30,137 bases of DNA from Escherichia coli (lineage in GTDB: Bacteria; Pseudomonadota; Gammaproteobacteria; Enterobacterales; Enterobacteriaceae). Position numbers and translations under genes: made by a program. The stretch lies in NCBI RefSeq assembly GCF_003334355.1, contig NZ_QOWP01000040.1; one strand, given 5' to 3'. Positions 291 to 424 of this stretch are shown in pieces. Position 1 is the stretch's first letter, and each line of letters begins with the position of its first letter. The notes under the pieces are model-generated. The model made no database searches. It saw nothing but the letters and a program-made list of their open reading frames with translations, and was not told the origin of the DNA.

Positions 291-424
291 CCCAGCAAAA
301 CCCCGCTTTATACCTTTTTACGCACAGAGTTATCCACAATCATCAATGTAATTTCTGTATTTTTCCCACGGTAACCACTGTCAAAATTGTGATCACCATT
401 GAAAGAGAAAAATTCGCGAGCGTT

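Follow-up and report, generated by a model that had tools for sequence, protein, structure and literature searches.

A pair of DnaA boxes located between the ribosomal RNA operon rrnE and the purH gene of Escherichia coli is, judged by comparison of many loci, positionally tied to the rrn P1 promoter rather than to purH, and it most likely represents a conserved upstream element of an rrn P1 promoter. The pair occupies positions 318-338 of the window, which is the whole stretch of 30,137 nucleotides that was analysed. It forms a cooperative site for two DnaA molecules, in which a weak box is followed, after 3 bp, by a consensus box in the same orientation, and its binding in vivo has been published. 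The site itself is already known, being the very same one that has been described as the 'purH' double DnaA box of E. coli K-12 (PMC11317965; Microbiology 2024;170:001474). The present comparison adds to that account the fixed register of the pair to rrn P1 and its occurrence at rrn operons without purH. Within the searchable literature, the membership of the pair in rrn P1 appears to be new; a search for DnaA together with rrnE, rrn P1 or rRNA operons returned nothing on DnaA boxes at rrn promoters.

The first 560 bases of the window align between rrsE and purH of E. coli MG1655 (the MG1655 coordinate is 4,208,080 - x for window position x), in agreement with the initial annotation, which had placed a DnaA box in the rrnE-purH intergenic region. 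The same 560 bases are 100% identical to E. coli strain 720632 and are present in all 5426 complete E. coli genomes, and the first ~235 bases of the window recur in each of the seven rrn operons. By analogy with rrnB P1, transcription from rrnE P1 would start at window position 217 on the minus strand, and the purH transcription start is predicted near position 453. The features of the region are collected in Table 1.

Table 1. Elements of the rrnE-purH intergenic region in window coordinates, with conservation among Enterobacterales purH loci where it was calculated.
Feature	Positions	Strand	Bits per position	Description
rrnE P2 promoter	116..143	-		TTGACT, 16 nt, TAATAT; sole sigma-70-like call in 1-600; within the seven-operon repeat
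rrnE P1 core promoter	226..253	-	1.86 (-10)	-35 TTGCGG (253..248), 16-nt spacer, -10 TATAAT (231..226); read from sequence
Candidate Fis site I of rrnE P1, GCTGCATTCCCCAGC	282..296		1.77	Fis I-like dyad, centred at -72
Conserved block (C/T)TTATAC	307..313		1.84	4 nt from the weak box; ~-90..-96 of rrnE P1
Weak partner DnaA box, TTACGCACA	318..326	+	1.45	7/9 matches, tandem orientation; -109..-101 of rrnE P1, centre -105
Spacer GAG	327..329	+		3 nt, between the weak and the consensus box
Consensus DnaA box, TTATCCACA	330..338	+	1.98	exact match, single copy in the 30,137-base window; -121..-113 of rrnE P1
22 nt after the consensus box			0.54	
Lineage-specific insertion	339..392			~54 nt, from the double box to the purH promoter; absent from most Enterobacterales
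purHD control region	425..446	+		PurR operator GCGCAAACGTTTTCGT (425-440), -10-like TACAAT (441-446); read from sequence
purH coding sequence	548..2137	+		529 aa; from the open reading frame list; annotated purH in E. coli genomes

Between the P1 core and the pair lie the two conserved blocks of the table. The centre of the dyad agrees with the -72 Fis site of rrnE P1 reportedly described by Aiyar et al. in 2002. The TTATAC block was rejected as the -10 of an extra promoter using the consensus box as its -35, since the minus-strand hexamer (TATAAA/TATAAG) is without the final T and the promoter scan made no call. It was also rejected as a third DnaA box, with at most 5/9 matches in any register, and as a Fis core, which it does not fit. 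The sole Fis core candidate (a G-N13-C 15-mer) that overlaps the consensus box, 327-341, is not conserved, its terminal C being lost in other genera; the conserved dyad fitting Fis site I lies apart from it.

On the other side of the pair, a GATC is found at 391-394, at the end of the insertion stretch. The purH 5′ leader (453-547, plus strand) contains a long hairpin, GCGUUAGCUGAGUUUUU-CGCG-AAAAAUUCAGCUAACGC, with its core at ~478-515, and a small GCCCC-loop-GGGGC hairpin (466-479) precedes it. The fold of 453-550 has a minimum free energy of -35.6 kcal/mol (z = -4.67); the base of the long stem is kept in 20 Enterobacterales leaders, its apical insert varies, and compensatory changes are seen at 7/15 pairs. 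The long leader hairpin matched no Rfam family. At the gathering threshold, the Rfam matches are a TPP riboswitch at 11774-11874 (plus strand, 74.8 bits) and the P26 sRNA family at 26143-26204 (minus strand, 71.1 bits), presumably the thiC leader and the rplL-rpoB region.

The initial annotation described a perfect 9-mer DnaA box upstream of rrn P1 and about 210 bp upstream of purH. The match is exact and unique in the window, it precedes the inferred rrnE P1 start by 113 to 121 nt, and 209 nt separate it from the purH ATG (548). It has the sequence of a high-affinity (R-type) DnaA box, the 9-mer being identical. Read in the rrn direction the box becomes TGTGGATAA, and it is the half of the pair farther from rrnE P1. 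The annotation rightly cautioned that a single perfect box can occur by chance: the frequency in shuffled sequences is 0.16 copies per window, with at least one copy in 16 of 100 shuffles. The relaxed consensus TTWTNCACA is found twice in the window against 2.08 expected, and the only match besides the box itself, TTTTGCACA at 10184-10192 (plus strand), is partnerless in the double-box search. Genome-wide, ~35 consensus boxes are predicted at uniform base composition (2 x 4.64 Mb / 4^9), compared with 32 published for E. coli (PMC11317965).

The single box alone therefore stays within chance, whereas a chance origin of the pair TTACGCACA-GAG-TTATCCACA is ruled out by the shuffles together with its conservation. 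The double-box pattern with 2 mismatches allowed was matched in 0 of 100 shuffles. In the window itself, no second match of the form box-NNN-box with 2 mismatches exists besides 318-338, and the pattern with a 2-nt spacer has zero matches. The two boxes share their orientation, stand 3 bp apart and include one consensus box, which are the features of a published double DnaA box: same orientation, 2 or 3 bp apart, and at least one box near consensus (PMC11317965). Within 1-560, four 9-mers have at most 2 mismatches to the DnaA box, all on the plus strand; the two outside the pair, at 195-203 in the shared rrn leader and at 237-245 in the P1 spacer, occur at about the chance rate, and the minus strand of this stretch has no DnaA box with up to 2 mismatches. 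A DARS-type sequence (three boxes, one of them inverted, with IHF and Fis sites) is excluded, as there are two tandem boxes only. The same holds for a cluster of the datA or oriC type (at least four boxes in ~1 kb with an IHF site or an unwinding element), the strong boxes being the tandem two. The 'oriK' zones are located elsewhere on the chromosome (PMC12000880).

Binding of DnaA to the pair is documented in vivo. DnaA-SPA ChIP-seq in MG1655 gave 16 bound regions, among them a 124-fold 'purH' peak centred at 4,207,740 (PMC11317965). By alignment the pair maps to 4,207,742-4,207,762, i.e., 2-22 bp from this centre, and the published 23-mer tTTACGCACAgagTTATCCACAa is identical to window 317-339. 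The locus served as the authors' model for the 'double DnaA box'. Mutation of either box away from consensus on the chromosome greatly lowered the ChIP-qPCR signal, and bringing the weak box closer to consensus had no effect on DnaA binding. A spacer longer by 1 bp (4 bp) also greatly lowered binding, and one shorter by 1 bp was tolerated, spacings of 2-3 bp being functional for binding (PMC11317965). The purH upstream region likewise appears in a second, independent ChIP-seq study (PMC12926920). The DnaA occupancy that the initial annotation proposed to look up is therefore on record. Its suggestion of a possibly functional box stands as to binding and conservation, but the unit is the double box at 318-338, not the lone 9-mer.

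The naming of purH as the target followed from proximity, in a paper without comparative analysis (PMC11317965). Transcription of purH or rrnE as a function of the site is contained in none of the three studies concerned (PMC11317965, PMC12926920, PMC12371093), and the literature search found no study in which transcription from rrnE P1 or of purH was assayed after mutation of the boxes or perturbation of DnaA.

Several known sites resemble the pair in part. Fis sites II and III of rrnB P1 lie in the same part of the P1 upstream region, and the centre of the weak DnaA box at -105 falls approximately into the slot of site II; they differ from the pair in the protein bound and in the motif. Ross et al. 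reportedly placed these sites at -102 and -143 in 1990, and Fis site I at about -71. The boxes of nrdAB differ in that regulation by DnaA-ATP has been experimentally demonstrated there. The double box upstream of polA differs in that it sits at the promoter of a protein-coding gene, and it is not known to be linked to an rrn promoter. In construction both are similar to the pair at rrnE. At nrdAB, two close boxes upstream of the promoter bind DnaA cooperatively and either mutation abolishes binding (cited in PMC11317965), and the polA site, tTTATGCACAaagTTATCCACAt, likewise has a weak and a consensus box in tandem, separated by 3 bp, and reaches nearly the same ChIP value (123 vs. 124; PMC11317965). 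The loci datA, DARS1 and DARS2 are also strong DnaA-binding loci outside oriC that contain a double box (PMC11317965), but they depend on additional boxes, in DARS including one that is inverted, and on sites for IHF or Fis, whereas the rrnE site is made of two tandem boxes only.

Conservation of the 9-mer, the second check that the initial annotation had named, is close to complete. Within E. coli, at least 5410 of 5426 complete genomes carry the consensus box unchanged, a count obtained by summing three alleles of the 36-mer 308-343, and the 73-mer around the site is present as one copy per genome in 5418 of 5426. The window allele of the 36-mer, with the weak box TTACGCACA, is carried by 4626 genomes, compared with 779 for the allele with the weak box TTACACACA (G/A at window 322, position 5 of the weak box); a GAA spacer occurs in 5 genomes. 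The sole common polymorphism of the pair is thereby located at the degenerate position 5 of the weak box. Even the most divergent alleles retrieved keep the pair, namely those of O157 ATCC 43888, which has many changes just downstream, and of TW01221, which has a 15-nt deletion downstream. The insertion stretch 339-392 is polymorphic in E. coli, including a 15-nt deletion.

Across the order, purH loci were retrieved with PurH as the query, one genome per species, and were not conditioned on the box. The perfect TTATCCACA is found on the purH strand in 45 of the 46 Enterobacterales species with readable upstream DNA. The genera carrying it are Escherichia, Citrobacter, Kluyvera, Enterobacter, Dickeya, Brenneria, Erwinia, Pantoea, Serratia, Yersinia, Rahnella, Photorhabdus, Proteus, Moellerella, Budvicia, Tatumella and Rosenbergiella. 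The single exception, Pseudocitrobacter, has TTATACACA-GAG-TTACCCACA, with one mismatch per box. Three genomes show the reverse order, with the consensus box in the slot of the weaker one and vice versa. The spacer is 3 nt long in 49/49 loci and variable in sequence (GAG, AAC, GAT, GAC, AAG, and others). The weak slot shows 17 variants in the 49 loci: positions 1, 2, 7 and 8 never change, 47/49 loci retain position 9 and 42/49 position 6, and positions 3-5 are free. It therefore evolves in the pattern of a DnaA box, TTnnnCACA, which indirectly supports the need of both boxes for binding. The consensus box is the most conserved element of the intergenic region, and its excess over the flanking intergenic DNA (1.98 vs. 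0.54 bits per position) is that of a sequence under purifying selection.

The distances on the two sides of the pair behave differently. The P1 -10 block is conserved in all loci, and the start of the consensus box lies 109 nt from it in 34 of 38 loci, 108 nt in one and 97 nt in the three slot-swapped ones. In all 42 loci whose consensus box occupies the distal slot, this box lies 45 nt from the Fis I-like block. The core of the PurR box is also kept in all Enterobacterales loci compared, and its distance from the end of the consensus box is 31-33 nt in 36 loci (the three swapped loci being counted after correction); E. coli and E. albertii have 85-86 nt, and Citrobacter, Kluyvera and one Enterobacter (L013) have 95-97 nt. 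As the distance to the PurR box varies from 31 to 97 nt while the distance to P1 holds, every insertion lies on the purH side. In Edwardsiella hoshinae (L047) the contig begins 33 nt upstream of the PurR box, where a pair in the ancestral layout would end, and it is possible that the pair there lies inside the repeated rrn upstream sequence.

These distances bear on the proposal of the ChIP-seq paper, in which the pair would mainly be a DnaA operator or activator of purHD. The synthesis of purine nucleotides would then be tied to the initiation of replication, much as that of deoxyribonucleotides is through the DnaA sites of nrdAB and nrdDG. The pair does lie in the purH upstream region and was assigned to purH by the authors (PMC11317965). 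In the ancestral layout of 31-33 nt, found in 36 loci, it would stand at ~-61 to -81 relative to the predicted start of purH, where upstream regulators commonly bind, and for this layout purHD regulation is plausible. Moreover, the extra length relative to most Enterobacterales, 53-54 nt in E. coli and E. albertii and 63-65 nt in Citrobacter, Kluyvera and one Enterobacter, comes near to a whole number of helical turns (5 and 6, respectively). A mainly purHD-directed role is nevertheless considered unlikely. Length changes are tolerated on the purH side only, the double box is absent from purH loci without an adjacent rrn operon, and the same module is found at rrn operons without purH nearby. 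In addition, most DnaA-regulon proteins were unchanged in the proteomes of datA, DARS1 and DARS2 mutants, and PurH is not among the reported changes (PMC12371093).

The dependence on rrn was followed in both directions. About 30 purH loci from outside the Enterobacterales (Vibrionaceae, Pasteurellaceae, Aeromonas, Shewanella, Pseudoalteromonas, and others) lack a 16S gene in the 3 kb preceding purH, and none of them carries the double box. In the opposite direction, metagenomes were scanned with a pattern made of the P1 -10 block, a gap of 75-100 nt and the exact TTATCCACA. Despite the range allowed, the gaps returned were 93-94 nt only, or 81 nt for the swapped type; as the scan was conditioned on the exact consensus box, the frequency of rrn P1 promoters without the box is not measurable from it. 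No purH is present anywhere in the flank of 28 of the 80 scan loci. The neighbours other than purH comprise a NicO transporter, a DcuS-like kinase, an island, a 1171-aa helicase-like open reading frame, yrdA, acnB, murI/btuB and secA. When six unrelated contexts were compared, the conserved parts were the P1 core and the distal pair only, of which the consensus box and the -10 block were imposed by the search pattern and the partner box was not. The secA, acnB and helicase-like neighbours are co-oriented and end beside the box, so that rrn P1 is the only promoter nearby.

The NicO context, in which the NicO gene is followed by proP and kdgT, accounts for 16 metagenome loci (L092 and 15 others) with 14 distinct sequences, and the similarity of the module between the NicO and purH contexts stops 2-3 nt past the consensus box. 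Enterobacter genomes encode the NicO protein of L092, among them CP008897.1 (E. cloacae ECNIH3), where the order is 16S, P2, P1, the Fis I-like dyad, TTATAC, TTACGCACAgagTTATCCACA and the NicO gene. In a small sample of seven contexts of NicO homologues, taken regardless of their surroundings, the module is present in both species in which NicO adjoins rrn (E. cloacae and E. huaxiensis; Enterobacter loci L209-L211 and L220). It is present in 0/5 genera in which NicO is without rrn (Kluyvera, Klebsiella sp., C. rodentium, Pseudocitrobacter and one other). Enterobacter asburiae (L008) has a purH-linked copy of the module, and with a NicO-linked copy in the same genus, some genomes probably possess two such rrn operons.

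The secA-linked locus (L154) belongs to Shewanella algae. Four other Shewanella genomes, a small sample picked by SecA homology alone and with no regard to the box, all carry TGTGGATAA-nnn-TG(G/A)G(G/A)GTAA between the 3′ end of secA and the 16S gene. Their box starts 102, 102, 103 and 113 nt before the P1 block, compared with 102 nt in E. coli. The value of 113 nt is that of Shewanella gaetbuli (L229), whose shift of ~11 nt corresponds to one helical turn. The pair is accordingly present in at least two orders of Gammaproteobacteria. Within MG1655, the pair is found at rrnE only: the 135 nt upstream of the start of the other six rrn P1 promoters contain no DnaA box with up to 1 mismatch. The pair thus has what an rrn P1 upstream element should have, a fixed distance to P1 and a presence tied to rrn and not to the neighbouring gene.

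Two further explanations were considered. The pair may have no local regulatory role and act as an origin-proximal high-affinity site which titrates free DnaA. Its 124-fold peak is among the strongest and similar to that of polA, it lies within the origin-proximal zone of high box density described as a titration region (PMC12371093), and it has no known effect on expression. A titrating site would not need a fixed promoter distance, yet the register to P1 is held across Enterobacterales and Shewanella with almost no change in length. The site also follows rrn P1 into different chromosomal neighbourhoods, and two boxes offer little capacity among the hundreds on the chromosome. Titration as the whole role of the pair is accordingly judged quite improbable.

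Alternatively, the bound DnaA could be a barrier which shields the upstream region of rrn P1 from the transcription or supercoiling of its neighbour. Complexes of DnaA with its box are reported to block RNA polymerase (Schaefer and Messer, in 1989), and in the Shewanella, acnB, murI and helicase-like contexts the pair separates rrn P1 from the 3′ end of a gene read in the same direction. The neighbours in the Enterobacterales (purH, NicO) are, however, divergent, so no transcription reads in, and a barrier has no need of a P1 distance that is constant to the single base. A barrier role is regarded as very improbable.

The comparisons point instead to the double box at ~-121 to -101 as being, somewhat more probably than not, an ancient and position-locked part of particular rrn P1 promoters of the Gammaproteobacteria, in the Enterobacterales, in Shewanella and in the murI, yrdA and acnB contexts. 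The module could, however, also be copied from one rrn operon to another of the same genome by gene conversion, with no selection acting on the box. The pair is the outermost conserved element of the rrnE P1 upstream region (-121 to -101), just beyond the Fis site at -72. In the proposed mechanism, DnaA bound there would influence the initiation complex at P1, its position and helical face being fixed, in the manner of the upstream Fis sites at rrnB P1. A fixed register to P1 fits a protein that touches or shapes the promoter complex, and simple titration needs no such constancy. The balance tips slightly towards a direct action of bound DnaA on rrnE P1, which may be either activation or repression. 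In the Enterobacterales, the same pair may also affect the divergent purHD promoter. Against an action on P1 stands that one of the seven rrn operons of E. coli carries the site, so that total rRNA synthesis would be little affected. It also counts against it that at rrnB P1 the equivalent position is taken by Fis sites II and III, which add little to activation.

The pair is among the strongest DnaA-binding sites on the E. coli chromosome and is the model of the 'double DnaA box' rule. The regulation of purH by this site has been assumed in the literature from proximity alone, and the comparisons favour the rRNA promoter; if this reading is true, the E. coli 'purH' ChIP peak would really be an element of rrnE P1. 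Transcription of one rRNA operon would then be coupled to the amount or the nucleotide state of the replication initiator, which would directly sense or control it. The coupling of growth rate, ribosome content and replication initiation is a long-standing question, and an action of DnaA on rrn P1 would connect the initiator of replication to ribosome synthesis by a direct molecular link.
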